A stretch of DNA of 64,000 nucleotides from an uncultured delta proteobacterium (lineage in GTDB: Bacteria; Myxococcota; Myxococcia; Myxococcales; Myxococcaceae): NCBI GenBank assembly GCA_963776345.1, contig CAVZMH010000017.1:1-64000 (forward strand), given 5' to 3'. The stretch's first letter is position 1; each line of letters opens with the position of its first letter. The position numbers and the translations under genes are program-made. A model generated the notes under the pieces. The model did not search any database. It saw nothing but the letters and a program-made list of their open reading frames with translations, and was not told the DNA's origin. Positions 1-15,668 of the stretch are shown here, one piece after another.

Positions 1-36
1 GGCCGAGTGCCACCGGGCCGGGGGGACGCATCGGTC

Positions 37-64
37 GCTGTAAGGCGCTTCTCACTTCTACGTC
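37..64 (+). promoter_or_regulatory. Putative ECF sigma promoter, copy 1 (TGTAAG-N16-CGTC)
   Basis: GCTGTAAGGC at 37-46 and CGTC at 61-64; same motif and spacing recur at 231-258; ATG follows at 80. Confidence 0.55.
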
Positions 65-79
65 TTGGCTGCTCGAACC

Positions 80-268
80 ATGAGCGCCCCTCTCCTTTCC
101 TCCGTCGCCCTCGCTGCCCTCTCGCTCTACGGCCACGTCCAGCCGCGCTTCATGAACGATCCGGAGCGGACCGGCGGGACGGCGCACCTCGCCCGCGCCA
201 ACTCCCCGAAGAGTCAGGGCTCCGGCTGCAGCTGTAAGGCCGGGGCGGTCGCTGCGTCGTCAGGGTGA
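80..268 (+). CDS. Small hypothetical protein, hydrophobic N-terminus, CSC near C-terminus; possibly a remnant
   Basis: ATG 80 just after ECF-like promoter; 3' end overlaps the second promoter. Confidence 0.3.
   Translation: MSAPLLSSVALAALSLYGHVQPRFMNDPERTGGTAHLARANSPKSQGSGCSCKAGAVAASSG
231..258 (+). promoter_or_regulatory. Putative ECF sigma promoter, copy 2, upstream of the metallothionein-like ORF
   Basis: GCTGTAAGGC 231-240, CGTC 255-258, 16-nt spacer between TGTAAG and CGTC as in copy 1. Confidence 0.6.
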
Positions 269-311
269 ACGCGTGCAAGACCGCCCGCGCCGATCACCGA
301 GGAGACGAATC

Positions 312-452
312 ATGAGCAGTGAAGAGACTTGCCGCTGCGAGAAGAAGAGCTGTGGCTGCACCATGGCCGAGCCCTGTCAGTGCGGCCAGCGCTGCGAGTG
401 CGAGACGACGTGCACCTGCGAGAACGGGTGCTCCTGCGGCGCGGCGAAGTAG
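312..452 (+). CDS. Metallothionein-like Cys-rich peptide, 46 aa (not in ORF track)
   Basis: GAGGAG RBS; MSSEETCRCEKKSCGCTMAEPCQCGQRCECETTCTCENGCSCGAAK; 12 Cys as six CxC motifs, no aromatic residues or His. Confidence 0.8.
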   Translation: MSSEETCRCEKKSCGCTMAEPCQCGQRCECETTCTCENGCSCGAAK

Positions 453-465
453 CCGGCCCGCGGCG

Positions 466-496
466 GGAGCGGGAGGCCCGTCGTGCTTCCCGCTCC
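466..496. terminator. Hairpin between convergent metallothionein-like and ECF genes
   Basis: GGAGCGGGAGGC / GCTTCCCGCTCC 12-bp stem (one G-U pair), 7-nt loop; no U-tract. Confidence 0.5.
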
Positions 497-1074
497 TATC
501 CGTCGCCGTGGGCGCAACCGGTGCTGCCCGGCTCGCCACACGAGCAGTCGATGCAGCCCCGCTCGGCGCAGGAGCCGCACCAGCGCACCACCCGCTTGCG
601 CAGGGTCTGGCGGGCGCGGAACAGGCGCACCCCTGCGTTGTTCGCGGTGATCCCGACCTCCGCGGCGTAGTCCTGCACCGAGACCCCGTCGACCTCGACC
701 CGGCGGAGCGCCAGGGCGTACTCCGGCTTGAGCGTCTCGGAGAGGCGCGACACGCAGCGGCAGACGGCGTCTCGATCGTCGAGACCGGGCTGCCACTCCT
801 CCTCGAGCTGCCTGCCGAGCGCGGCCAGGGCCCGATCGCTCGCGCCTCGTCGCCGGTAGTGATCGATCACCGCGTTGCGGAGGACCCGGTAGAACCAGGC
901 CACGGTGCTCTCGCCGTTCGCGAGGGGCAGCCGGTCCAGGCTCCGGGCGAAGGCGTCCTGGAGAACGTCCTCCGCCAGCTCGCGATGTCCGACCCGCCGC
1001 TCCAGGAACGAGAGGAAGGCGCGCCGGTTCTCGGCGATCACCGCGACGAGCTCGTGGCGAGAAGGCTGGGTCAT
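496..1074 (-). CDS. CorE-like metal-dependent ECF sigma factor
   Basis: Sigma2 (AEDVLQDAF, WFYRVLRN), CRC motif before sigma4, C-terminal Cys-rich tail CGSCAERGCIDCSC. Confidence 0.85.
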   Translation of the reverse strand: MTQPSRHELVAVIAENRRAFLSFLERRVGHRELAEDVLQDAFARSLDRLPLANGESTVAWFYRVLRNAVIDHYRRRGASDRALAALGRQLEEEWQPGLDDRDAVCRCVSRLSETLKPEYALALRRVEVDGVSVQDYAAEVGITANNAGVRLFRARQTLRKRVVRWCGSCAERGCIDCSCGEPGSTGCAHGDG

Positions 1075-1103
1075 CAGCCACTCCGGTTGCGGGCGTGAAT
1101 CAG

Positions 1104-1150
1104 TGCCCAGGGGCGGAATCGAACCACCGACACGGGCATTTTCAGTCCCC
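1104..1150 (-). repeat. att core copy (tRNA-Phe 3' 47 nt, 1 mismatch)
   Basis: Matches 13983-14029 except one G>C. Confidence 0.95.
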
Positions 1151-1418
1151 GTAGCCGAATGGCCAAGTCCTCGAACGAACTCCAGAAGACGAAGGAGCTG
1201 AACTGGACTGCATCACCGGTGCATCAGCAGGTCATGGCCGAGCGGGTGAGCTGACTGTGAGGTCCCACCGCCGCGTCCGTCCGCCCGGTCCCGCCCGCGC
1301 GGCCCACGGCGCCCGTGCACTTGGACGGCACGTCCTGAGCGCGAGACGGCGCTTCCCCGCACGGAGTGAGCGCGGGCTTGTGGCGTAGATGCTGCTAGCC
1401 ATCGGGCCGGGTGAGTGG

Positions 1419-4337
1419 TCACGGTGTCACGGTCGGCTTCGGCGCCGGCTGGCAATGGAGCCGCGCGCACAGTGCGCGCGCCCGGGCGAGATCGAGCAGA
1501 TCGGGATCGGCGTCGCGCCAGTCCGAGAGGAACCCTTCCGCCAGGTGGCGCGCCTCGTCCGCCTTGCCCTGCCGCTCGAGCACCTCCGCAAGGAGGCGCG
1601 CCGAGCGGGGGAGCATCCACGCATGGTAGATCGCGGTCGGCAGCGGCTCCGTCCGGTACTGGCGCAGCGCAGCCACGGCGCACTCGAGGTCGCCGTCCTC
1701 GGCGCAGGCCTGTCCCAGGCCGAACGCCGCGACCTTGCGCACCTTCCAGCGCCGTGACGCGACGAGGTCGCGGATCATGGCCCGGCCCCCCGCCGCATCG
1801 CCGCGCGCGCGCACTGCAAGGGCCTGGACGAACGTCCGCGCGGAGCGGATCTCGTCGGAGAAGACGCTGCTGGCCGGGTCGGCGCGCTCGCGGGTCAGCC
1901 CCCGCGCGTAGCCTTCGGCTCCCGGCACGTCGCCGGCAACCGCCAGGGTGAGCGCGCCGAGCCAGTCGAGCTGCGGCTGGGAGGCGACGAGCTCACGGAT
2001 GCGTGCGCGGAGCTCTCCGGCCGGGGCGTCACCGGAGGCAATCGAGAGGTTCGCATAGCCGGTCGACCCGCCTCCCTGCGCGACGCCCGCCAGGACCGCG
2101 AGTGCCTCCCGCCTCCGCCCCTGGTAGGTGAGCGCAAAGGCGAGCGGCAAGTGGCCCCGGCCGGACCGCGCGATGCGCTCCCGTGCCACCCGCTCGGCCT
2201 CGCGGTACTCGCGGCGCGCCATGTGCACCCAGTCCAGAGTGGGTCTGCCCGGGGACAGGAGGTCCTCGCGCCTCGCGGCCTCGAGCGCGTCGTCGAGCTC
2301 GCCGGCCGCCGCGAAGGCCATGGCCGCCGCCCCCGCCCGGCCAGGGGCCGGCGGCTGAGCGAGCCAGGTGCGGGCGAGCGGGATCAGCTCCGCTCGGCGT
2401 ACGAGATCGCACATCGCCCCGACGATCTGTTCCTGGGCCGGGACGTACATGGGGTCGGCCTGCAGCGCCCGCTGCAGGTAGGCGAGGGTCTCCTCGGGCG
2501 AACCCGCCACCCTCGCTCCCAGCGCGAGGACCTCCTTGTCGTCCGGATAGCGCTCGAGCACCTCCCGGTAGAGCGCCCGGGCGTCGTCCACGCGTTGCTC
2601 GACCGTCGCGTTCCACGCTCGAATGAGCCGTGCCTCGCGCCAGGGCGCTCGGCCTGCGACCCTGATCGCGGTGGTGGCGATCGCCCCCAGCTCGCTGACC
2701 GGCGCTCTCTCGCGAGAAGCCGCGGCGGCGAGCGCGAAGTGGGCGAGCGCGAACTCCGGGTCGAGCGCGATCGCCTTGCGATAGGCCTCCTGCGCGCCGT
2801 TCAGACTCTGCTCCTCGAGCGACTTACCCGTCTCGTACCACCGGTTCGCCTCGAGGTTCGCCGTCACGAGCTGGGCGAGCGGTGTCGCGCCGGTCGAAGG
2901 GCCGCGATCGCCGACCAGCTTCTTCCGGGCCCGGGCGGCGAGGCGGTCGACCAGCGCCAGAACCTCGGACTTTCCCTGCGCCTGCTCGCGATCCGAGAGG
3001 AGGTACTCCCCTCGGTCGGGATCGATCCCGCGCAGCTCCACGACGATCAGCCCCCCCATGCGGCGCACGAAGCCCGCGAGCAGCGTCCGGGCCCCGGCGC
3101 GTTTGGCGATCTCCCGGCCGGTAGACTCGTCGATCCGCACCGCCACGTCCGTCCCGAGCTGCCGCTGGAGGTCCACCATTCGGCTGCGGGTGAGCACGCG
3201 GAGGCCCGGCGACTCCTGGAGCGCGGTGGCGACGAGGCTCCCGATCCCATCGAGATCCGGGTCCCCCGTCTCGTTCGCGAAGTCGGCCACGGCGATGAGA
3301 GGCGGCCCCACCTGATCGGGTGCCGCCTGGTGGATCACGACGACGATGATCGCGCCGAGTGCCCCCACCACCAGCGCGACCGAGCGAAGGAGCCTCTGCA
3401 TCGGCCGGCGGAGTGGGGGTGCTCCTTGCCGGAGCGCGCGGAGGAAGGCCTCGGCCGACTGCGGGCGACGGGACGGGTCGATCTCCAGACACCATCTGCA
3501 GAGCTGTTTCCAGCTCCTGCCGTAGTGTCCGGGGGGCCTCCCGATGCCCGGTTCGAGCGAGGGCGCGGCGCCGTCGCCGCGGTCGGCCAGCGTTCCGGTC
3601 GCGATCTCCGTCATGAGGACGCCGAGCGAGTACAGGTCGGTCGCCGGGCTTAGTTCCCGGCCGGCGACCTGCTCCGGTGCCATGTATGCCGGGGTGCCGA
3701 TCGGACCGTCCCAGGTCGTCGCCCCCGGCAGCCCGTCCATCGCCCGCGCGATGCCGAAATCCGTGACCACGGCCCGTTCGCTCCCACCATGCACCGGTAC
3801 CAGCATGACGTTGCTTGGCTTGAGGTCACGGTGGAGGACTCCCTCCCGGTGCGCCGCCGCCAGCCCGGAGGCGATCTGCGTGACCAGCTCTCTCGCGACC
3901 GGCTCGGGAAGAGGACCGTCTCTGCGCAGACGTTCGGCGAGCGTCTCGCCCTCGAGCAGCTCCATGCTCAAGAACAGCGGAGGCTCTCCCGGGCTCCCGA
4001 GATGGAGTTCGAACACGCGGCAGACGTTGAAGTGCGAGATCCTCCGGGCGAGGAGGATCTCCCGCCGGAATCGTTGCAGCCGAACCTCGGTCGACCCGGG
4101 CTCCAGACGCACCGTCTTCACTGCGATGCGCGCCCCGAGTGCGACGTCGACCGCCTCGTAGACCTCCCCCATGCCGCCACGACCGAGCATCCGGACGACG
4201 CGGAACCGCGACTCCAGCACCGTGCCGGTCGGTAACGCTTCCTGCGCCGGGGCTCCGAGTGGGTCCGTACCCTCCGTCAGTGGCGGCGACACCACCTCAG
4301 TCGGCGACCCCGCTTCGATCCTGCGCTCCGGAGGCAT
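1419..4337 (-). CDS. Hanks-type Ser/Thr protein kinase with TM segment and TPR-like C-terminus
   Basis: GRGGMG, IAVK, HRDLKPSN, DFG, APE motifs; GGGAGG RBS before ATG 4337. Confidence 0.9.
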   Translation of the reverse strand: MPPERRIEAGSPTEVVSPPLTEGTDPLGAPAQEALPTGTVLESRFRVVRMLGRGGMGEVYEAVDVALGARIAVKTVRLEPGSTEVRLQRFRREILLARRISHFNVCRVFELHLGSPGEPPLFLSMELLEGETLAERLRRDGPLPEPVARELVTQIASGLAAAHREGVLHRDLKPSNVMLVPVHGGSERAVVTDFGIARAMDGLPGATTWDGPIGTPAYMAPEQVAGRELSPATDLYSLGVLMTEIATGTLADRGDGAAPSLEPGIGRPPGHYGRSWKQLCRWCLEIDPSRRPQSAEAFLRALRQGAPPLRRPMQRLLRSVALVVGALGAIIVVVIHQAAPDQVGPPLIAVADFANETGDPDLDGIGSLVATALQESPGLRVLTRSRMVDLQRQLGTDVAVRIDESTGREIAKRAGARTLLAGFVRRMGGLIVVELRGIDPDRGEYLLSDREQAQGKSEVLALVDRLAARARKKLVGDRGPSTGATPLAQLVTANLEANRWYETGKSLEEQSLNGAQEAYRKAIALDPEFALAHFALAAAASRERAPVSELGAIATTAIRVAGRAPWREARLIRAWNATVEQRVDDARALYREVLERYPDDKEVLALGARVAGSPEETLAYLQRALQADPMYVPAQEQIVGAMCDLVRRAELIPLARTWLAQPPAPGRAGAAAMAFAAAGELDDALEAARREDLLSPGRPTLDWVHMARREYREAERVARERIARSGRGHLPLAFALTYQGRRREALAVLAGVAQGGGSTGYANLSIASGDAPAGELRARIRELVASQPQLDWLGALTLAVAGDVPGAEGYARGLTRERADPASSVFSDEIRSARTFVQALAVRARGDAAGGRAMIRDLVASRRWKVRKVAAFGLGQACAEDGDLECAVAALRQYRTEPLPTAIYHAWMLPRSARLLAEVLERQGKADEARHLAEGFLSDWRDADPDLLDLARARALCARLHCQPAPKPTVTP

Positions 4338-4669
4338 GGGAAACCTCCCGGGGAGGGCACTTACTCTACGACCCGTGGCGGCCCGGGTCACGTAGAACGA
4401 CGGATGGATTCTGAAAAGCAGAGCTACTTCGAAGGTGCAGGAAACGCTCAACTCCGACCTGGGCGGCGTGGCGACGCTCCCCGACGTCATCGACCATCTT
4501 CCGCGCCGAAGCCGAGCGTGCCGAGGTGGCCCTGCTCACCGCCCGTACCAGGCCCTCGGCCCGCAATCGATTGCGGGCTCGCTCTCAATGGCCCGCCAAT
4601 GCGCCCGTGAATGCTCTCCCGGATCGGGCACACGTCGACCGCTATATCTCCCCCCGGCGGTCGGAAGCG

Positions 4670-5446
4670 GTGAGCGATCACACCATCGCCAAAGAGCTGG
4701 TGACTCTTCGAGCCTCGCTCAAGCTCGCCAAGCGCGGGGGGCTGTGGCTCGGCGACATCGATGCACTCTTGCCGGTCGGCTTTGCTCCGGATTATCGGCC
4801 ACGAACCCGTGCCCTTTCGACCGAGGAGCTCGGGCAGCTGCTCGCCCTTCTGCCGCCAGCCCGAGCAGCGCAGGTGAGCTTCATCGTCGCGACCTCCGCG
4901 TGCTGGAGCGAATCGGTGAAGGCTCGCCGTGGCGACGTTCAGCTCGATTCAGGCTGGGTCCACATCCACGGCACCAAACGGGCGGCCAGAGATCGGCACA
5001 TCCTCGTCCGACACCCAGCTCTCGCGAGCCTGCTCGCATACGCGCTCGAGCACGCTCCTGGCGAGGACCTGCTCTTCCCGTCCTGGAGCAACGTCCGCCG
5101 CGATCTCCTCATCGCCTGCGAGCAGGCGAGAATCGAGCCCTGCTCTCCGAACGACCTGCGCCGCACCTACGCCAAGTGGATGCGCCTGGCCCGCGTTCCC
5201 GCCGAAATCGTCGCTCCAACCATGGGCCACCGGGACACGCGTATGGTCGAGCGCGTCTATGGCCGCCTGTCGCCCGAGGAAATCGGCGCGCTGCTCACCG
5301 CGCACTTCGCTCCGGACTGCATCGCCGGTGCATCAGACAGCGTGAATTTGCCCAGGGGCGGAATCGAACCACCGACACGGGGATTTTCAGTCCCCGTCGT
5401 GGAGTGGCCAAGCCCCCGCCCCAACAGGGGGAACCGTAGCAGGTAA
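4670..5446 (+). pseudogene. Tyrosine integrase, 5'-truncated (copy B); ORF reads through the att core
   Basis: GTKR, NDLRRT, MGH...VY motifs; integrase-like sequence may extend back to about 4590; roughly 90% nt identical to 13247-13920 by eye. Confidence 0.8.
5349..5395 (-). repeat. att core copy (tRNA-Phe 3' 47 nt, exact)
   Basis: Identical to 13983-14029. Confidence 0.95.
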
Positions 5447-5665
5447 CACGGGTTGCATCGCCGGTGCATCAGTCACGAGCCTCAGCGACCCGGGGCCGCG
5501 AAGCCGCCTCTCGGGGCGCCGGAGTCCGAGAGCGTGAGACGCGCTCGCCGTGGCTCGCTCCGCCCGGTCGACCGCTGATTCGCAAATGGGCAGGACGTCG
5601 CGGGCTTGCGACCGGTCTGAGCGGTGCGTTCGGTACAGTCGGCTGGAGAGCCCCGGCCGGCGCGT

Positions 5666-6139
5666 CTACAGAGGCGCGCCCTCGGGAGCGCGCGACAGTT
5701 TCATCGCCACGGCTGTCCCAGGGCACGCCCCTCGACATTCTTCCGAACTCTCGAGCACCGCGGGAAGACTCGTCCGTGGGGTGACGGAGAAGCCGAACCG
5801 CTGAAACCAGTCGGAAGCCGTCGTGGTCAGGAGGTAGATGTCTCGTACCGGGCTCATCCTGGCCTCTCGGAGGAGCTGCCGAACGAGTGCGCTCCCCACA
5901 CCCCGGCGCCCAGCATCAGCAGAAACCGCCACGCTCCGCAGGAGTCCTATGGCGCCGTAGCGTTCGAGGCCAGCGCACCCGATGATCCATCCATCGACTT
6001 CGGCCACGAGAAACCCCGCGAGATGCTCTCGTGCACCGGCGATCGGCAGCCCGTGTTCCCGGACGAGCGCCAAGATTCCAGGCCAGTCCCCCGGCCGGGC
6101 CTGACGTACCTTCGCGAAATCAAGGCCTTGGCTGCTCAT
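5666..6139 (-). CDS. GNAT acetyltransferase, ArsN2-like (arsenic resistance associated)
   Basis: GLERYG..GLLRSVAV, YLLTTTA, C-terminal SEECRGACP motif. Confidence 0.75.
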   Translation of the reverse strand: MSSQGLDFAKVRQARPGDWPGILALVREHGLPIAGAREHLAGFLVAEVDGWIIGCAGLERYGAIGLLRSVAVSADAGRRGVGSALVRQLLREARMSPVRDIYLLTTTASDWFQRFGFSVTPRTSLPAVLESSEECRGACPGTAVAMKLSRAPEGAPL

Positions 6140-6319
6140 GCTGCCGAGTCCCAGTCAGCCCTCTCGGCCCTGAGTCTATCGAGTTACTCGAGCAGCAGGG
6201 AGGTAAGAGCCGGCCCTGGCGAGGGCAGGAGCGCGAGATTGTGAAGTACTGCTCCTTCGCTTCTGGCCCCATCGTCAGCGCGCTGCCTCGGGAAGCGGCT
6301 TGGAGCGCCGGGGGCTGCG

Positions 6320-8947
6320 TCAGATCCACGACCGCCGCAGCAGCCACGACTTCACCCATTGGGTCAGAAGCACGTAGCAGAGGAGCGTCACGAGGAGGAG
6401 CGGCCAGTAGAGCCGCGGCAGCCTGGTGAACCCGAGGACCTCAGCAAAAGGCGAGAACGGCAACCACACGCCGATTGCCATGATCGCCAGGCTCGTGAGC
6501 GTCAGAGGCCAGGCAGCACGGCTCTGCAGGAACGGAACCTTGTTGGTGCGGATGACGTGAATGATGAGCGTCTGGGTCAGCAACGATTCGACGAACCAGC
6601 CGGTCTGGAAGAGCGAGGCGTGCGACGGGGTCACCGCTTTGAACACGAACCACATCATCGCGTACGTCGTGTAGTCGAAGACCGAGCTGCAGGGGCCGAT
6701 GAAGAGAATGAAGCGAGCGATCTCTCCCACCGACCACGGACGCGGTCTCGCGACCTGCTCCGGATCCACGTCGTCGACCGGAATCGGGACCTGAGAGAAG
6801 TCGTACATCAGGTTGTTGGTGAGGATCTGCAACGGCGCCATCGGTAGGAACGGAAGGAAGGCGCTCGCTCCCACAACGCTGAACATGTTGCCGAAGCTGG
6901 AACTCGCTCCCATCCGGATGTACTTGAGGATGTTCGCGAACACCTTCCGACCCTCGATGACTCCCTCCTCGAGGACGAGCAGGCTCTTCTCCAAGAGGAT
7001 GAGGTCCGCCGATTCCTTGGCGATGTCCGTCGCCGAGTCGACCGAGACTCCCACGTCGGCTGCCCGGAGCGCGGGGGCATCGTTGATGCCGTCGCCCAGG
7101 AAGCCGACCACGTGTCCCTTCCGCTGCAGGGCGGCGATCACCCGGTGCTTGTGAGCCGGCGCCAGCCGGGCAAAGAGGGTGACGTTCTCCGTGGCTGATG
7201 CCAGCTCCTCGTCGGAGAGTGCATCGACCTGCGCGCCGAGCAGGACGGGCGGGTTGGAGATGCCCACGTCGCGACAGATCTTCCGGCTGACCGCCTCGTT
7301 GTCCCCGGTCAGGATCTTGACCGAGATGCCGTGCTGCTGGAGGGCGGCCACTGCGGGTCCGGCCGTCTCCTTCGGCGGATCGAAGAAGGCGACGTATCCC
7401 CGAAGAACGAGGTCCGTCTCGTCAGCCTTCGAGTACTCGGCGCGCCGATCCAGATCCCGGAACGCGATTGCCAGCACGCGGAAGCCGTCCGTGCTGAGCC
7501 GCTCATACTCGATCCGGAGGTCGTCGAGCACGATGCTCTCGATCGGGAGAATCTCGCCCCGATGCTCGTAGCGGGTGGAACGAGCGAAGACTGCCTCCGG
7601 TGCTCCCTTGCAGATGAGCCGGTACGTTCCGTCCGGCCGCTCGACAACCACCGACATCAGCCGACGTGCGAAGTCGAACGGGATCTCGTCGATCAGGTGG
7701 TGCTGCGGGATGTGCAGCTGGTCATGGACCTCGGTGTGAGCGAGGATCGCCCGGTCGAGGAGGTTCTTCAGGCCGGTCTGGAAGTAGCTGTTGAGGTACG
7801 CAAGCGTCAGCACGTCCTCATCGTCCTCGAGCAACACATCGCAGTGTCGTTCCAGGACGACACGGTCCATGGTCAGCGTCCCGGTCTTGTCGGTGCAGAG
7901 GACGTCCATGGCGCCGAGGTTCTGGATGGAGTTCAGCCGCTTGACGATGACCTTCTTCTGGGCCATCGCCATCGCCCCCTTGGAGAGGCAGACCGTCACG
8001 ATCATGGGAAGCATCTCCGGGGTCATTCCCACGGCGACGGCGACCGCGAAGAAGAACGCATCGTGCCAGTTGTGCTTGGTGAGCCCGTTGATCAGGAAGA
8101 CCAGAGGGACCATCACCAGGATGAACTGGAGCATCAACCAGGTGAAGCGGTTGACGCCCTTGTCGAAGGCGGTCTGGACCTGCTGACCGACAATTCCTCG
8201 AGCGATGGTCCCGAGGTAGGTGCTCTCACCCGTTGCCACGACGATGGCCGTGGCAGTCCCGCTCTCGACGCTCGTTCCGAGAAAGCAGAGGTTCCGGAAT
8301 TCGATCGGCGAACGGGCTCCCGGAGCTTCCGTCCGATCCGTCTTCTCCACCGGCATTGACTCGCCGGTGAGGCTCGCCTGCACGACGAAGAGGTCCTTGC
8401 TGACGATGACCCTGACGTCGGCGGGAATCATGTCGCCAGCCGAGAGCTTCACTACGTCGCCTGGCACCAGCTCCGCGAGGAGAACTTCCCTGGCCGACGA
8501 ATCGCGGAGCGCGGTGGCGGTCACACGTATCATCGCTCTCAGCTTCGCAGCGGCCGTGTCCGCCCGGACCTCCTGCACGAAGCGGAGCGCGACCCCGAGC
8601 ACCACCATCACCCCCATCACGATGGCTGCCCGCGCATCTCCGGTGAGCGCGGAGATCGTCCCGAGGACCGCAAGGAGGACCACCAGGGGATTCAGCAGGG
8701 CCTTCAGGAGGACTCCCAGTCGTGTGGGCCCGTCCTCGGAAGCCACCGTGTTGGTCCCGAACTTCTCCAGCCTGCGCTCGGCCTCCTCCGAGGTCAGTCC
8801 GGAACGAGAGGTGCCGAGGTGCTCGAGCAGCGCATCGACTTCACTGGTGGCGGCCTCGAGAAGTTGACTCGATGGGCCGAGGGAGGTCCAGCGATCCTTG
8901 CGGATGGTCAAACGCCTCGGGAGCACCGCAGCCATGGAGAGCTTCAT
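6320..8947 (-). CDS. mgtA: Magnesium-translocating P-type ATPase
   Basis: TGES, PEMLP, DKTGT, GDGIND, QTGWFVES motifs. Confidence 0.92.
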   Translation of the reverse strand: MKLSMAAVLPRRLTIRKDRWTSLGPSSQLLEAATSEVDALLEHLGTSRSGLTSEEAERRLEKFGTNTVASEDGPTRLGVLLKALLNPLVVLLAVLGTISALTGDARAAIVMGVMVVLGVALRFVQEVRADTAAAKLRAMIRVTATALRDSSAREVLLAELVPGDVVKLSAGDMIPADVRVIVSKDLFVVQASLTGESMPVEKTDRTEAPGARSPIEFRNLCFLGTSVESGTATAIVVATGESTYLGTIARGIVGQQVQTAFDKGVNRFTWLMLQFILVMVPLVFLINGLTKHNWHDAFFFAVAVAVGMTPEMLPMIVTVCLSKGAMAMAQKKVIVKRLNSIQNLGAMDVLCTDKTGTLTMDRVVLERHCDVLLEDDEDVLTLAYLNSYFQTGLKNLLDRAILAHTEVHDQLHIPQHHLIDEIPFDFARRLMSVVVERPDGTYRLICKGAPEAVFARSTRYEHRGEILPIESIVLDDLRIEYERLSTDGFRVLAIAFRDLDRRAEYSKADETDLVLRGYVAFFDPPKETAGPAVAALQQHGISVKILTGDNEAVSRKICRDVGISNPPVLLGAQVDALSDEELASATENVTLFARLAPAHKHRVIAALQRKGHVVGFLGDGINDAPALRAADVGVSVDSATDIAKESADLILLEKSLLVLEEGVIEGRKVFANILKYIRMGASSSFGNMFSVVGASAFLPFLPMAPLQILTNNLMYDFSQVPIPVDDVDPEQVARPRPWSVGEIARFILFIGPCSSVFDYTTYAMMWFVFKAVTPSHASLFQTGWFVESLLTQTLIIHVIRTNKVPFLQSRAAWPLTLTSLAIMAIGVWLPFSPFAEVLGFTRLPRLYWPLLLVTLLCYVLLTQWVKSWLLRRSWI

Positions 8948-8980
8948 CGGAAGTCCTCAAGCCCTGTTTGAACCTCTGCC

Positions 8981-10843
8981 TCAGGCTCGATTCGCGAGGC
9001 CAGGCAACGTCACGGTGAACATCGCACCGCCTATGCCGGGCCCTGGCCCGCAGAGGATCTGGCCGCCATGCGCCTCTACGATCTGCCGGCAAAGGTAGAG
9101 CCCGATCCCGGCACCCGTGGTCCCCTTCATCCCTCCGAGCCCGTGCTCGACTCGGAAGAACTTCTCGAACACGCGCTCGCGAAACGCTTCGGGAACACCC
9201 GGGCCCGAATCGATCACCCGGAGAACGGCGTCGCCACCAGCGGCGGCTCGCTCACACTCGACGACGATCGTTCCGCCCGAAGGCGTGTACTTGCCGGAAT
9301 TGGAGAGCAGGTTCGAGACCACGAACGCGAGCCGATTGACGTCGACCCGTCCCACGACCGGGGTTTCGAGGCGCGTCTCGAGCACGACGCCGCCATCCTC
9401 GCACTGCGACCGAAAGCGTTCGGTGACTCGATCCACGATTCGCGAGACGTCGACCGCCTCCAAGTTGAGCCGAAGCTGACCGGCCTCGATCCGGGTGAGG
9501 TCGAGAAACTCGTCGACCGTGGCTCCGAGCTGCCCCACTCCGACGAGCGCAGTGGCCACCAGCTCGCGCTGTCTCCCGCTGAGCGACTCCTCGCCGAGCA
9601 TCTCCAGGGTCATCTTCAGAGTAGTTACCGGGGTTCTCAGCTCGTGCGAGGCGACCCCGACCAGCTCGAGCCTCATCTCGTCGAGACGAACTAGCTCGGT
9701 CACGTCGTAGAGCACGAGAACTGCCCCCGCACGCTCCGAGCCGGAGAAGGGCACGAGCCGGGGAAGGAGTCGGCGATGCGCCACGCCGTCTCCAACCGAA
9801 AACGCCCGAGAAAGCTCGATGACTTTCGGATGCCGTTGCCGCTGCCGGAGCGCCTGGAAGATCTCCGCTTGTGCCGTCTCGGGCAATGGCAGGGCCGCGA
9901 GGCCTGGCCCGTCCGCAGCGAGGGAGGGGAAAAGCCGTCGCGCCTCGGCGTTGAACGTGACCACCGTTCCCTCGGCGTCGATCACCAGCACTGCATCCGG
10001 TAGAGCCGCGAGCGTCGACTGGAGCGTTTCGTTCGCCTTGAGCAGCTCCCCGAGGCTCGACCTGCGGAAGGTGGCCAGAGCGCTGGCCATCCGGTTGAAG
10101 CCCTCAGCGAGCCGACCAAGCTCGTCCGTGGAGTGTGCGGTGACTCGTGTCTCGAAATCCCCCGACGCGATGCGGTCGACGCTCGAGGTCAGCTCCCGAA
10201 CCGGGGTCAGAACCACGCGCCCGAGGTGAATCGCGATCAGGCCCGAGAGGATCACGGCTGCGGCGCAGATCACCGCGGCCACGATGGCTCCCCGCATGGC
10301 AGCGTCACGAGTGAACGCCGCGAACCCCCTCAGCTCCGCCGCCTGTTCGTCCCGGATCCTGTCCCCTGCATTCACCGCCTCCCGCAGCCGCGGATTCACC
10401 TCTCGGTGGTAGCGAGGCAGCGAATCGGCTCCGGGCTGGTCCTGGAGGAGAACGTCGCCGGCACGGTGGTAAGCGTCGATGGCTGCGGCGAGTTCGGCTG
10501 CGCGCCGTCGCTCCTCGGTCCCGGTCAGAGGAGACGCGAGCCTGGTGAAGGCCAGTGAGACCTCGGCCCGGCTGGCGAGCAGTCGCGCCCGCCGGTCAGT
10601 CTCACCCGGAACCAGAGCGAGGAGCAGGACATCGTCCTCCCGCTCCAGTCCGTCAGTGACCGCGTCGACTGCCACGGTCGTGGTCTCCGTGTTCCGAAGC
10701 CCTGCTCCGACGACGCGACTGAGCCGGAGGAGCATCAGGCTGGTCAACAGCCCGGCCACAATCGTGGTGATGACGAGTAGCGCACCGGCGAAGACGAATC
10801 TCGTCCGGAGCGACACGCTTCTCCTTGGGCCCGGACTCGTCAT
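8981..10843 (-). CDS. Sensor histidine kinase (HAMP, PAS, HisKA, HATPase), KinB-like
   Basis: Two TM segments, SHELRTP H-box, NLLSN, DSGPG, GAGIGL. Confidence 0.9.
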   Translation of the reverse strand: MTSPGPRRSVSLRTRFVFAGALLVITTIVAGLLTSLMLLRLSRVVGAGLRNTETTTVAVDAVTDGLEREDDVLLLALVPGETDRRARLLASRAEVSLAFTRLASPLTGTEERRRAAELAAAIDAYHRAGDVLLQDQPGADSLPRYHREVNPRLREAVNAGDRIRDEQAAELRGFAAFTRDAAMRGAIVAAVICAAAVILSGLIAIHLGRVVLTPVRELTSSVDRIASGDFETRVTAHSTDELGRLAEGFNRMASALATFRRSSLGELLKANETLQSTLAALPDAVLVIDAEGTVVTFNAEARRLFPSLAADGPGLAALPLPETAQAEIFQALRQRQRHPKVIELSRAFSVGDGVAHRRLLPRLVPFSGSERAGAVLVLYDVTELVRLDEMRLELVGVASHELRTPVTTLKMTLEMLGEESLSGRQRELVATALVGVGQLGATVDEFLDLTRIEAGQLRLNLEAVDVSRIVDRVTERFRSQCEDGGVVLETRLETPVVGRVDVNRLAFVVSNLLSNSGKYTPSGGTIVVECERAAAGGDAVLRVIDSGPGVPEAFRERVFEKFFRVEHGLGGMKGTTGAGIGLYLCRQIVEAHGGQILCGPGPGIGGAMFTVTLPGLANRA

Positions 10844-12207
10844 GCCAGGTTGTAGCGACGACGTTTTCGCAGAAGAGTGTTTTCTCCGATGCCCAGAGTA
10901 TGCGCAGCGGCTTCGATCGACGGCGCGCTGGCCAGGACCCTGGCAATGTGCTCGCGCTCGATCGCGTCCAGGGATACGGACGCCCCCAACGCCACGGCAG
11001 TCTTGCCGGGCGATGGCTGTGAAGGCGCGTCGATGTTCAGGTCTCCTCGGGTGATGATTCCGCCCTCGGACAAGATCGTCGCCCGCTCGACCGCGTTCCG
11101 CAGCTCCCGGAGATTTCCCGGCCAGTCGTAGTCGCGAATCGCCGTCTCGGCTTCGGGATGGAACTCGAGCGGGTGACCCTGCCGGCTTGCGAAGAACTTC
11201 AGGTAGTGCCGGGCGAGCGGCAATAGATCCTCGCGCCTTTCGCGGAGGGGAGGAATCAACAGGGTCAGTACGTTCAGCCGGAAGAGCAAGTCCTCCCGAA
11301 ACCGCCCCCCTTTCACTGCAGCTTCAAGATCGCGGTTCGTTGCCGCGACGAGGCGGACATCTGCTCTCCGTTCCATCGCGTCGCCAAGGCGCTCGTAGCT
11401 CCGGTCGTTGAGGAAACGGAGCAGACGCGCCTGGGCGTCTGCGGTGAGGTCTCCAACCTCGTCCAGAAAGAGCGTTCCTCCCTCTGCCTCCTGCACCTTT
11501 CCGAGCGCGTCCGAGATCGCCCCGGTGAAGGCACCACGCCGGTGTCCGAAGAGAGTGCTGGACATCAGTTCGCTCGACAGGCCCGGGCAGTTGACACTCA
11601 CGAAAGCCGCGTCCCTCCGAGGCGAGCGCGCACGGATCCAGCGAGCGAGCACGTTCTTCCCCGTGCCGCTCTCCCCTCGAAGCAGCACCACCGCCTCCGA
11701 TGCCGCCGCGCGAGCGGCAGTCTGGAGAAATGCGCGGAAGCGCGGACTCTCGGTCTCGAAGAATTCGTCGGCTTCGCTCGCGTTGAGCTGGTCCTGCAAC
11801 TCAGCCAGGCGTCTCTTGAGGAGGCTGGCTTCCACGACTCGTCTTGCCGCCAACCTCACCTGTTCGGGGGAGAAGGGTTTCGGTAGGTAGTCCGAGGCCC
11901 CCAGCCGCATTGCCTCGACCGCGGTCTCGAAAGTAGCGAACGCAGTGATTACGACGATCGGAAGGTCAGGACGCCGACGCAGGAGTTCGGGGATAAGCGC
12001 CAGACTGTTCTGGGCCCCCAGCCAGAGGTCGAGGAAGAGGACGTCGAAGCGGGCACGGTCGACGGCCTCGATCGCGCCGTTTCCGGTCGCGACACCCAGC
12101 ACCCGCGCGCCCGCGGCCTCGAGGCACAGCCGGAGTGACTGCCTCACCCCGGCGTCGTCGTCCGCGACGAGTGCGGCCCATGACGTCTGCAGAGGTCCGT
12201 CCTGCAC
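10840..12207 (-). CDS. Sigma54-dependent response regulator (REC-AAA-HTH), AlgB-like
   Basis: REC domain, GESGTGK, GAFTGA, WPGNLREL; 4-bp overlap with kinase. Confidence 0.92.
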   Translation of the reverse strand: MQDGPLQTSWAALVADDDAGVRQSLRLCLEAAGARVLGVATGNGAIEAVDRARFDVLFLDLWLGAQNSLALIPELLRRRPDLPIVVITAFATFETAVEAMRLGASDYLPKPFSPEQVRLAARRVVEASLLKRRLAELQDQLNASEADEFFETESPRFRAFLQTAARAAASEAVVLLRGESGTGKNVLARWIRARSPRRDAAFVSVNCPGLSSELMSSTLFGHRRGAFTGAISDALGKVQEAEGGTLFLDEVGDLTADAQARLLRFLNDRSYERLGDAMERRADVRLVAATNRDLEAAVKGGRFREDLLFRLNVLTLLIPPLRERREDLLPLARHYLKFFASRQGHPLEFHPEAETAIRDYDWPGNLRELRNAVERATILSEGGIITRGDLNIDAPSQPSPGKTAVALGASVSLDAIEREHIARVLASAPSIEAAAHTLGIGENTLLRKRRRYNLA

Positions 12208-12276
12208 TATCGGCGGGATAGCACAAACCGTACCCGTTCCGGTCCGGAGGCCCTACGCCAGCGAGTCCCGAGCGTT

Positions 12277-12291
12277 CCGCCAGAATGGCGG
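12277..12291. promoter_or_regulatory. Inverted repeat CCGCCA-N3-TGGCGG, candidate enhancer site
   Basis: Perfect 6-bp inverted repeat about 85-100 bp upstream of the sigma54 site. Confidence 0.4.
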
Positions 12292-12374
12292 TTCGAGCAG
12301 GTGAGCGGCCCACCGATTCGGCTGAACGATGCGCGCAGGCCTTTGGATTCCGCGGGCGGGGCTGGAGAGCCGAA

Positions 12375-12390
12375 TGGCATGCGCCTTGCG
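12375..12390 (+). promoter_or_regulatory. Sigma54 -24/-12 promoter
   Basis: TGGCAT-GCGCC-TTGCG, GG-N10-GC, near consensus; divergent from a sigma54 activator gene. Confidence 0.7.
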
Positions 12391-12451
12391 AAGCCCTTGG
12401 GGCAGACCGCATCGTGATTCGTGCGGGCGGGTTCGCAGGACCGAGGCGTAC

Positions 12452-12652
12452 ATGCTCGCCGTCTTCTGCACCGATTGCGGTGCCAGGGCTCACCTCCAGA
12501 ATCAATCTGGGAGCGTTTCCACGACCGTCGGAGGTCAGCCCCGGTTCTTGTGCGGCACCTGCGCGAGAAAGTTCACCAAGCGGGAGAGCGCGGTGACCTA
12601 TCTGAAGACCAAACCCCCGGTCCGCCCGCCAGAGGATCTCACCGGGCTCTGA
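12452..12652 (+). CDS. Small putative zinc-ribbon protein (66 aa)
   Basis: CTDC...CGTC; GAGG RBS; downstream of the sigma54 site. Confidence 0.5.
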   Translation: MLAVFCTDCGARAHLQNQSGSVSTTVGGQPRFLCGTCARKFTKRESAVTYLKTKPPVRPPEDLTGL

Positions 12653-12711
12653 TGACCTGGGCGACCACCTCCGAGGCGGACATCTTCGGACGGTGTCCCC
12701 CTTGCGGGTCG

Positions 12712-13197
12712 ATGCGCCGTCGGGTTCTCGCTGGCTCGTTCGTCATTCTCCTCGGGTGTGCGTCCAGCCGCCCCGGGGAGAATGTGGAACAGGCCCGAGT
12801 GACCGAATCCAAGTGCTCCGAGGCGGACCGAGAGAGGGCAGGGTCTGTCACCGCGCACATCGTCAAGCGAGTCGACCCCGAGTACGTCAGCGTGCACGTG
12901 GGAAAGGGCCTCGGAGACGAGCAGCTCGTCGGCGCTCGCGTCGCTTTCCGTGTGCCCGCGGACTGGGCTGTTGGAGTTCTGGTTCAGGCAGCCCGCTGCT
13001 CGCAAGCCGCCTTCTTGCTTCGGGGGACGGTCTCGGCACCGATCGACCATCTCTGGGAACCGGGGACCTGGATCGATGTCAAGGCCGTGGGTGGAGTCAG
13101 CTCCTCACGGGAGGCGCAGGTCGTTCTGAAGACGGTCACAGGCGACGCAGCCGAGCGGCTTCTCGAGCGCGTTCGCGCCTTCGCCATCCAACGCTGA
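12712..13197 (+). CDS. Hypothetical lipoprotein
   Basis: MRRRVLAGSFVILLGC lipobox-type signal. Confidence 0.55.
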   Translation: MRRRVLAGSFVILLGCASSRPGENVEQARVTESKCSEADRERAGSVTAHIVKRVDPEYVSVHVGKGLGDEQLVGARVAFRVPADWAVGVLVQAARCSQAAFLLRGTVSAPIDHLWEPGTWIDVKAVGGVSSSREAQVVLKTVTGDAAERLLERVRAFAIQR

Positions 13198-13246
13198 TGG
13201 TCGCCCCGCGTGGGGACACGGAGTCTCGCGCCGGCGTTCGGAAGCG

Positions 13247-14044
13247 GTGAGCGACCACACCATTCCCAAGGAGCTGGTGACTCTTCGAGCCTCGCTCGAG
13301 CTCGCCAAGCGCGCGGGGCTGTGGCTCGGCGACATCGATGCGCTCTTGCCAACCGGCTTTGCTCCGCATCATCGGCCACGAACGCGTGCCCTCTCGACCG
13401 ACGAGCTCGGCCAGCTGCTGGCCCTCCTGCCGCCAGCCCGAGCCGCGCAGGTGGGCTTCATCGTGGCGACGTCCGCTTGCTGGAGCGAAGCGGTGAAGGC
13501 TCGCCGCAGCGACGTTCAGCTCGATTCAGGCTGGGTCCACATCCGCGGCACCAAGCGGGCTGCCAGAGATCGGCACATCCTCGTCCGACACCCCGCTCTC
13601 GCCAGCCTGCTCGCGTACGCGCTCAAGCACGCTCCTGGCGAGGACCTGCTCTTCCCCTCCTGGAGCAACGTCCGCCGCGATCTCCTCATCGCCTGCCAGC
13701 AGGCCGGCATCGAGCCCTGCTCTCCGAACGACCTGCGCCGCACCTACGCCAAGTGGATGCGACTCGCACGAGTTCCGGCTGAAGTTGTTGCTCCAACCAT
13801 GGGCCACCGGGACACGCGCATGGTCGAGCGCGTCTATGGCCGCCTGTCGCCTGAGGAAATCGGCGCGCTGCTCACGGCCCACTTCGCTCCGGACTGCATC
13901 ACCGGTGCATCAAACAGCGTGGATTCGGCCGGAAAACGTGGACGGAATGGACGCTCGCGCCGCGCCAACCCAGCGAAAACAGTGCCCAGGGGCGGAATCG
14001 AACCACCGACACGGGGATTTTCAGTCCCCTGCTCTACCAACTGA
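13247..14044 (+). pseudogene. Tyrosine integrase, 5'-truncated (copy A); ORF runs antisense into tRNA-Phe
   Basis: Same motifs as copy B; ends VPRGGIEPPTRGFSVPCSTN. Confidence 0.8.
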
Positions 14045-14055
14045 GCTACCTGGGC
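13983..14055 (-). tRNA. tRNA-Phe (GAA), CCA not encoded
   Basis: GCCCAGGTAGCTCAGTTGGTAGAGC-AGGGGACTGAAAATCCCC-GTGTCGGTGGTTCGATTCCGCCCCTGGGCA cloverleaf. Confidence 0.97.
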
Positions 14056-14142
14056 GTGTGACACCCCCCGCGCCGCAACCCGCCAGACACGAGGGCGCGC
14101 AGGAATAGGACGCAGTTCCCCGCCAGTCAAGCAGGGGACGCC

Positions 14143-14562
14143 CTAGTGAAGGGAGGCGCCGAGCGAGGAGCTCGCCGAGGCGAGGAGCGAGTCCAGCTCG
14201 CCCGGCTCGATGGGCTTGGCCAGCCGCCCGGAGACCAGGGGATGCTCCGGTGCCACCTGCTCCAGCGCACTGTGCGCCGAGCAGAGGATGAACCGCACGC
14301 GGGCGCCGACCCGGCGAGCGAGACCGTACAGCAGCTCGATGCCGCTCATCCCGGGGAGCATCAGATCGAGCACCACGATCACCGGCGCGTCGTCGGCCAC
14401 GGCGCGCTCGAAGAAGCGGAGCGTCTCGGTCGCGTTGCAGGCGCTGAGCACGGTGTAGCCGCGGCGCTCGACCTCCTCGCTCAGGAGCCGGCGAAAGAAC
14501 GCCTCGTCGTCCACCACGAGCACGTACGGCGTGCGATCGTTCGGGGCAGAAGCGTCGTCCAC
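14143..14562 (-). CDS. Single-domain response regulator
   Basis: VLVVDDE, LDLMLPGMSG, KP motifs; start uncertain. Confidence 0.8.
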   Translation of the reverse strand: MDDASAPNDRTPYVLVVDDEAFFRRLLSEEVERRGYTVLSACNATETLRFFERAVADDAPVIVVLDLMLPGMSGIELLYGLARRVGARVRFILCSAHSALEQVAPEHPLVSGRLAKPIEPGELDSLLASASSSLGASLH

Positions 14563-14951
14563 GGCTGGAATGGTAGCGCAGCTTTCTCCCCCGGCGAAGA
14601 TCCGGAACCGGGGACGGAAGGTGCGACGCGGGCCCTGTCCCACTCCTGCTCAGACGGACGCAGGGTCCTGACGCCCGGCCGTTACGAAGTCAGGGGCGCC
14701 TCCCCACCGTGGCCAGATGTCCCACCTCGGCCGCCTGCTCGCCCTCGCCTTCGAGCCGCGCCTCGCACCGGGCGGCGTTGGGTCCCGATTCCTCTGACTG
14801 GAGTTTACGCAATCCGAGCGCGGGCACGCTCCGGCGCTCCGGGCCCATCCAGCACCGAGGGCGACAGTCCTCACCACTCCGACTCAGGTCGGCGCGGACT
14901 CTCTACACACGATGGGTCGAGTGGGCGAATGATCGGGGGCAAGGCTGATCG

Positions 14952-15326
14952 ATGGACCGCACCACCGTCCTCTTCGTCGACGACGACGACTTCATCCGCG
15001 GCGCTTACGGCGACCTGCTTCGCGACGAGGGCTTCTCGGTGGTGGAGGCCGCCGACGGCTGCGAGGCGCTCCAGGCCGCGAGCGCGATCTCCGGCGACGT
15101 GCTCCTGGTCCTCGACGAGATGATGCCCTGCATGCGGGGGAGCGAGGTGCTGGAGCGGCTCGACCGCCGCTCCGACGCGGCCCGCTTCCGCGTGGTGATC
15201 ATCTCCGGCTCCGGGGGCTCCCAGGTCCACACCCTCCCCCGGCGAGGCATTCGCATCCACGCGGTGGTGGAGAAGCCGTTCACCGCCGAGGAGCTGCTGA
15301 GCGCGCTCCACCGGCTGGCCGCCTGA
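14952..15326 (+). CDS. Single-domain response regulator
   Basis: LFVDDD, LDEMMP, KPF motifs. Confidence 0.8.
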   Translation: MDRTTVLFVDDDDFIRGAYGDLLRDEGFSVVEAADGCEALQAASAISGDVLLVLDEMMPCMRGSEVLERLDRRSDAARFRVVIISGSGGSQVHTLPRRGIRIHAVVEKPFTAEELLSALHRLAA

Positions 15327-15389
15327 CGTCGCTCGCCGAGGGCCGGGCGCCAGGGATGGGCCCGAGGCCGGTTCGGCCCGCGTCCTGCG

Positions 15390-15665
15390 TCAACGGGGTT
15401 GCGCGTCCGCACCAGGGCCGAGCTTCCGCTCGTGCCGGCGAATCTCCGCGATCAGGAACGCGGCCGCGGCGGCGACGACCCCCGCATCGTCGAGCCAGCC
15501 CAGCACCGGGATGCCGTCGGGGATGAGGTCCAGCGGCCAGAGCACGTACGCCACCGCCGCCACCCCGGCCAGCTTCCGCCACGCCGCCACGCCCGGGTCG
15601 CGCAGGTAGCGCCAGAGCTTGGTGACGGTCCGGGTCCGTCCGAGCGCCCCTCCAGGCCCCGCCAT
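15390..15665 (-). CDS. YkvA/DUF1232 family membrane protein
   Basis: YVLWPLDLIPDGIPVLGWLDD motif. Confidence 0.8.
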   Translation of the reverse strand: MAGPGGALGRTRTVTKLWRYLRDPGVAAWRKLAGVAAVAYVLWPLDLIPDGIPVLGWLDDAGVVAAAAAFLIAEIRRHERKLGPGADAQPR

Positions 15666-15668
15666 GGC

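Follow-up and report, generated by a model that had tools for sequence, protein, structure and literature searches.

The 64,000-nt stretch analysed here (contig CAVZMH010000017.1, positions 1 to 64,000, from an uncultured member of the Myxococcaceae; referred to as the window) carries two tandem islands, A and B, inserted at a gene for tRNA-Phe(GAA), and each island ends in the remnant of a tyrosine integrase gene (int). In the reading that we favour, both remnants are 5'-truncated members of a family in which the attachment site of the element (attP) lies within the last codons of int. Integration trades a conserved tail of 16 residues for the four tRNA-derived residues CSTN, and this exchange of C-termini is probably a switch between the free and the integrated state of the element.

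The islands are bounded by a 47-nt core of the attachment site (att), the antisense of the 3' half of tRNA-Phe(GAA), which occurs three times in the window. Core copy 1 (1104..1150, forward strand) is the outermost displaced tRNA 3' fragment and contains one mismatch, copy 2 (5349..5395, forward) forms the junction between islands B and A and constitutes a hybrid, attP-like site, and copy 3 (13983..14029, forward) is the tRNA-proximal junction. The latter, with the antisense reading PRGGIEPPTRGFSVP, lies inside the intact target gene (13982..14055, reverse strand), the only full tRNA-Phe gene that ARAGORN finds in the genome, whose 3' half is the core beside island A. As a preliminary description of this DNA had stated, both integrase frames run open through the core. 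Copy A (13224..14044, forward; approximately residues 126-398; PF00589, E value 7e-13) represents the integrated form and stops with CSTN inside the tRNA gene, and copy B (4628..5446, forward; PF00589, E value 3e-10) ends in VVEWPSPRPNRGNRSR-stop, which is the tail of island A (5396..5446, forward) and, once the island is excised as a circle, would form the end of Int A. Each new element restores the tRNA gene and displaces older ones; island A, next to the intact tRNA gene, thus arrived second, and its insertion after B explains why its tail now ends int B; the CSTN end of copy A and the borrowed tail of copy B in the tandem array had both been anticipated correctly. The tail of island B itself, VAEWPSPRTNSRRRRS-stop (1151..1201, forward), is orphaned from any integrase frame. 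Both tails translate as had been claimed, and the six synonymous third-position differences named earlier are present; codon by codon the two tails further show three identical and seven non-synonymous codons, six of the latter in codons 9-16, and both stop at codon 17, with TAA in one and TGA in the other.

The placement of attP inside the 3' end of int, by which integration swaps the C-terminus, was borne out across the family by cores that are reached in frame. Relatives were collected with a search alignment (A1) built from the catalytic part only, without linker or tRNA part, and amounted to 192 loci: 79 from genomes (the best 80 of 159 matches), all 33 viral ones and the best 80 of at least 527 metagenomic matches. 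The 33 viral loci came from the alignment scan, a scan of the viral contigs with a single protein having yielded nothing. A catalytic motif and the catalytic Tyr were present in 180 rows, 138 of which have a tRNA 3' half no more than 520 nt after the Tyr; merging at 90% identity left 79 with a Phe-like core, as defined by a loose pattern that caught a few other tRNAs too. The core is reached in the GxEP frame in 68 of these 79, and the int frame stays open across it in 73, as compared with 20 and 13 for the other two frames. In the relatives at tRNA-Phe the T-loop follows the Tyr at a distance of 144-443 nt, and 31 of the 41 distinct Tyr-to-core distances are divisible by three (binomial p 4e-8, a value overstated by kinship). 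Stopping before the core is therefore not the habit of the family, most relatives reading through it. Eight relatives at other tRNAs are likewise all open through the core, spread over all three frames, so that what is conserved is not the tRNA-derived peptide as such. Because the query contained the core peptide, the 120 top protein hits were rejected as a frame test; 86 of them end in CS[TA]x, 22 in another tail, six run in another frame and six have no core. The tree calculated for the family is a quick one that served for placement, not for the order of events. Members of the family were also found in bins labelled Planctomycetales, Gaiellales, Betaproteobacteria and Chloroflexota (L106, L115, L057 and L058), by transfer or by misbinning.

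Both C-termini exist in natural examples, the tail form mostly in viruses and the tRNA-ended form mostly in chromosomes. Among the viral loci with a core, 11 of 12 are tail-side and the remaining one lies at an intact tRNA. The 11 comprise 10 loci classed as such and L127, for which a tRNA-Lys call was rejected since it covers a 3' half only; among these 11, L149 has its stop ahead of the core. Three more viral loci missed by the motif pattern read into a tail and one into an intact tRNA in another frame. The untruncated genome loci, on the other hand, end at an intact tRNA in 49 of 56 cases and do not in seven. Two full-length integrases stand in tandem, 9.1 kb apart, at locus L068, and the inner one ends in a WPTPR tail. 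A search for the joint of the excised circle covered four of the 16 listed public runs, all of them low-depth contigs (best share 0.30), no RNA data set being among those listed; none of 15 joints, out of 21, matches excision, a result that carries no information on whether circles form.

When both window tails served as queries in a DNA-similarity search, 15 distinct tails were recovered, these two included, and the signature of selection on a peptide is found in this set. The consensus in the free form is V-x-E-W-P-S-P-R followed by a basic stretch, and the stop stands at codon 17 in 14 of 15 tails (13 TGA, one TAA) while the flanks around it vary. In codons 1-8 the ratio of non-synonymous to synonymous change (pN/pS) is 0.12 in frame versus 1.2 and 2.8 in the shifted frames, the body of int having 0.11-0.28, and 13 of the 18 extra alleles in these codons fall at third positions (p 0.004, overstated because the sequences are kin). 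Codons 9-16 are freer (pN/pS 0.68); Arg and Lys make up 65 of 120 residues there versus 30 in shuffles. None of the tails contains an in-frame stop within codons 1-16, as compared with five and six tails in the shifted frames. The same outcome had been obtained with 11 tails (14 minus three near-duplicates) collected earlier. The motif is even kept after a switch of target, as in L237, where WPSPR follows a tRNA-Asn-like core, and in L128 (PPPRKYKR).

Several observations weigh against a tail selected as a switch peptide and have to be set beside this evidence. Tails and relatives are kin, so that all p-values given here overstate. The codon for Pro-5 is CCA in 19 of 21 cases, as compared with 185 of 2095 (9%) for int bodies, and the core is flanked on either side by A/T patches spaced at about 10 nt; constraints on the DNA therefore share the tail stretch with those on the protein. 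The P-x-P-R register is present in only 23 of 61 dereplicated non-tRNA-side cores of the wider family, and the core is out of frame in 11 of the 79 relatives mentioned above. In as many as 30 of 180 relatives int is not followed by a core (42 rows lack one, of which nine end within 520 nt and three have a core missed by the pattern), and in one group (L078-L082, L214 and L215) int stops about 22 residues past the Tyr, with the tRNA-Phe core upstream on the opposite strand in what is an ordinary layout. These short-stop relatives demonstrate that, across the family, catalysis does not depend on the tail. In the structural model described below, the predicted local distance difference test score (pLDDT) stays <50 over almost the whole of the linker, core and tail (most of residues 365-439). 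Finally, both window copies are broken, so that a working switch at this very locus is unlikely and the switch has to be regarded as a property of the family. The earlier proposal that the tail is under selection as a peptide thus stands with respect to the frame-specific low pN/pS and the conserved stop, but part of the conservation is DNA-level, and the stretch is, to judge from these alignments, dual-coded, with conservation at the level of both DNA and protein.

How far the DNA component reaches is the point on which one rival turns, namely that conservation past the core acts on the DNA, as a site for a host factor or Xis with a fixed spacing from core to arm, and that the peptide is a tolerated by-product of a gene that happens to lack a stop ahead of attP. 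A fixed TGGCCAAG with its rare CCA codon, the 10-nt-spaced A/T patches on either side, a core-to-arm distance of 58-59 nt in 11 listed cases, the disorder of the tail and the existence of tail-less relatives all agree with such a site. Removal of codons 4-6 from the comparison, however, still leaves a pN/pS of 0.17 and an excess of third-position changes (p 0.0015, again overstated by kinship). Moreover, the stop is held at codon 17 in 14 of 15 tails between variable flanks with TGA and TAA interchanging, the excess of Arg and Lys is frame-specific and indels in the linker preserve the frame, and we consequently consider it improbable that DNA-level conservation is the whole explanation.

A similarly small probability is given to the idea that the swap sets the amount of integrase, one of the two C-termini acting as a signal for a protease or altering the fate of the mRNA, which in the integrated form is antisense to the tRNA. 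It is in keeping with this idea that the part exchanged is the extreme C-terminus of a disordered region, that the position of the stop is strictly kept in the close clade and that CS[TA]x ends prevail among the top homologues (86 of 120). The last residues of the tail, however, vary freely (R, S, V), and tails of distant clades range from about 16 to more than 40 residues and still keep the inner P-x-P-R register, which fits a binding motif better.

The C-terminal segment of the Mx8 integrase, from a myxophage with attP inside int, is said in the title of a study not to be needed for excision. In line with this, it is very improbable that the tail belongs constitutively to the working enzyme, with the CSTN form being inactive in the style of archaeal suicidal integrases, the element being trapped until a tail integrase acts in trans or a tandem insertion rebuilds the gene: selection on the tail is as strong as on the int body, tandem junctions do rebuild the tail form (window, L068, L070) and PMC7253208 draws such a model for archaeal elements, but all catalytic motifs lie before the core, 156 of 180 relatives keep a full-length int and the swap in Mx8 does not inactivate the enzyme according to a review (PMC6070905).

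In the favoured reading, a state switch, the swap would act as a regulator of activity. The tail form would favour integration as long as the element is free, and the CSTN form would be less active once the element is integrated. Since the tail is basic and predicted to be disordered, we favour a role in binding: it would contact either a partner or DNA, in the simplest case attB, which lacks arms, and would thereby aid integration. The CSTN form would need the Xis-like protein encoded upstream to excise, and elements which lack this upstream gene and the arm-binding domain, such as those at the locus studied here, would be mobile only with an intact integrase from elsewhere. A bolder version, which we rate as possible though unlikely, sees a phylum-wide clade lacking the box I Arg, in which a dual-coded directionality peptide of 16 residues would let each newcomer switch on its predecessor, so that arrays would be self-destabilising. 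If true, such arrays would select for a crippled inner integrase, as seen in copy B and at the inner junctions of G007.

Neither of the two window copies is intact. Their scores against PF00589, 40.7 and 49.1 bits, exceed the cut-off of 27.1 and the C-terminal Tyr motif is present, yet intact relatives comprise about 398 residues and both window copies are without the first approximately 120 codons. Similarity to intact relatives begins at 4628 in copy B (about residue 120) and at 13224 in copy A (about residue 126), and copy A has 93% DNA identity to the intact L048 from 13224 on only. The break in copy B, where a match to L048 8911-8955 is joined to L048 10358, amounts to an internal loss of 1.4 kb that removes the N-terminus together with a small upstream frame overlapping the start of int in intact relatives; by its position and look this frame is Xis-like, with a weak helix-turn-helix hit as the only result in Pfam. 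Copy B has in addition suffered an in-frame deletion of 57 nt directly before the core (5348/5349). The N-terminal arm-binding domain and a complete core-binding domain, present in intact relatives, are therefore absent in both copies. Neither a six-frame search of window positions 1-16000 for the missing N-terminal part nor a search for other family copies in the 98%-complete genome returned anything significant. With the N-terminus and the upstream gene lost and no other copy of the family found in the genome, both elements are very likely immobile on their own. The remaining codons still look conserved, private changes being 18 synonymous and seven non-synonymous in copy A and 20 and three in copy B, which suggests that function was lost recently. 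An N-terminus is also missing in 12 of 180 relatives with enough room, at varied positions. The two window copies are broken within 19 nt of the same int position and differ in the sequence upstream, be it by chance, through a hotspot or from a shared ancestor.

The inference of a state switch leans on the precedent of Mx8, which Mx9 reportedly resembles in having attP inside int. Mx8 and the family described here have much of their layout in common. Both have a tyrosine integrase of a Myxococcota element with attP in the 3' end of int past the catalytic Tyr, a core formed by the antisense strand of a tRNA 3' end and translated in a GxEP frame (GLEPV in Mx8), a pair of TG-x-x-x-C repeats with an 11-nt period in the linker and a small gene overlapping the start of int, and both match phrog_1. 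In Mx8, the new 3' end changes the specificity of the integrase without inactivating it, as stated in PMC6070905. The differences are equally clear: Mx8 targets tRNA-Asp and not tRNA-Phe, it shares 26 nt at the T-arm/acceptor end (by comparison with the tRNA-Asp of the present genome) versus 47 nt with a probable crossover in the anticodon loop, its tail after GLEPV comprises 112 residues versus 16, and it keeps the box I Arg that most of this family replaces. Kinship between the two appears distant and uncertain. Identity is about 25%, hhalign gives a probability of 90.6 (E value 1.3e-6) with alignment A1 but 0.7 (E value 0.076) with alignment A3, the Mx8 integrase sits on a very long branch in the quick tree, Mx8 is not among the 25 listed of 189 phage hits and no Myxococcus appears in the organism tally of those hits. 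The earlier suggestion of a tRNA-Phe family with an Mx8-like switch is accordingly upheld for the order of parts and the natural occurrence of both C-terminal forms, whereas the window itself offers only broken remnants.

Other systems share single features with this arrangement. In SSV1, pTN3 and pT26-2, translation of the integrase runs through an att site made up of a tRNA 3' end, in antiparallel orientation in pT26-2, and tandem insertion can rebuild the gene of archaeal suicidal integrases (PMC7253208, PMC8371274). The suicidal SSV-type genes differ in being split upstream of the catalytic Tyr, so that this residue is carried by int(C), whereas only a short tail is exchanged here, and the present family is lambda-like with three domains and likely arm sites. 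The anticodon-centred (A) class of tDNA islands in Islander has an intact tRNA at one end and a displaced 3' fragment at the other, and its tandem arrays have one integrase and one fragment per member (PMC4383910). Crossover in the anticodon loop (inferred in our case), a restored tRNA and a tandem array are common to both, but in that source an int frame crossing attP counts as an exception, with Mx8 and SSV as the known cases (PMC4383910), while here it is the rule for a large clade. A literature search, covering the top listings of larger searches with subscription journals outside its scope, found no paper on this tRNA-Phe clade, although such elements may be listed in island databases without comment. 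What we describe is the known Mx8 design in a distant Myxococcota clade, with tRNA-Phe as target, a probable crossover in the anticodon loop and a short tail. A swap of tails that has been studied in one phage is thus general in a large clade of phages and islands of Myxococcota, and with 16 versus four residues the exchanged piece is small enough for dissection. The peptide is translated in no other situation than the free state or a tandem junction, and selection on it implies that the elements cycle in nature, and the intact relatives would offer new tools for integration at tRNA-Phe in myxobacteria.

The free form has the order catalytic Tyr, variable linker with one repeat pair, antisense tRNA 3' half, tail, stop and second repeat pair. 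A 17-mer with a TGCATC direct repeat of 11-nt period is present in four copies in the genome, all of them at the junctions described here, and these pairs probably represent arm-type sites. The likely pair inside int A (13895..13911, forward) encodes part of DCITGAS and that inside int B (5318..5334, forward) is 57 nt closer to the core than in A; likely distal pairs are located in island A (5454..5470, forward), where 58 nt separate the pair from the core and 7 nt from the stop of the tail, and in island B (1209..1225, forward). The distance from core to distal pair is 58-59 nt in all 11 cases listed. When both element ends were compared in 10 relatives, identity stopped 1 nt past TTTTCA in five pairs and 3-6 nt past it in the other five, which places the crossover, in all likelihood, in the 7-nt anticodon loop near the 3' end of the core. 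In L126, L068, L131, L132, L127 and L129 longer tails all read across the distal repeat pair in one and the same frame (ASPVH-like); the tRNA cores of these six loci are read in three different frames, and four other loci read the repeat pair in another frame. At locus L262 (G007:C4 ~1665300-1665410) the tail and arm pair of L032 recur, accompanied by no more of the core than its last 16 nt; this second copy lies directly behind an excisionase-like gene of another island and may be a secondary integration site.

An AlphaFold model of a natural full-length member (L126) has a lambda-like three-domain fold, and its best full-length structural match is lambda Int (1z1b). According to the model, the part lost from the window copies comprises a three-stranded domain with a helix and the first core-binding helices. 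The tail did not dock in the monomer model, in which it came out disordered. All catalytic motifs precede the core, so that both C-terminal forms keep them, and the GH...VY motif is invariant in A1. The catalytic Arg of box I is replaced by C, N, E, S or T in 79 of 82 rows of A3 (position 206) and retained in one; the box I region reads ATSA[C/N/E/S]WxE (window 13472-13492), box II reads NDLRR and two extra Arg in GTKRxxRxR are near-invariant. These substitutions point to an altered active site in an apparently active clade.

Island B (1151..5395, 4.2 kb, 70.7% guanine plus cytosine, GC) consists of its tail, a Ser/Thr kinase-TPR gene (1419-4337, reverse) and the int B remnant. Island A (5396..14029, 8.6 kb, 65.8% GC) has between its tail and the int A remnant, all on the reverse strand, genes for a GNAT acetyltransferase (5666-6139), a P-type cation ATPase (6320-8947), a HAMP-PAS sensor kinase (8981-10843) and a sigma-54 response regulator (10840-12207), all cargo being assigned by Pfam. 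The cargo of both islands is thus made up of signalling and transport genes, and a 4.5-kb island of L051 also has a related kinase. A second tRNA-Phe call by ARAGORN (5348-5426) was rejected, as it consists of the tRNA 3' half and the tail only. Beyond core 1 lies a gene for an extracytoplasmic function (ECF) sigma factor (496-1074), which in the same-genus genome G005 is found about 900 nt from the intact tRNA gene; the 13 kb that separate the two in the window are therefore insertions. The same-genus loci L022 and L024-L027 have no int beside tRNA-Phe, yet the last codons of an int linker (AKTV/AKAV) adjoin the core there as old scars of the family. To the left of the ECF sigma gene, positions 313-451 hold a short cysteine-rich frame that is metallothionein-like by eye.

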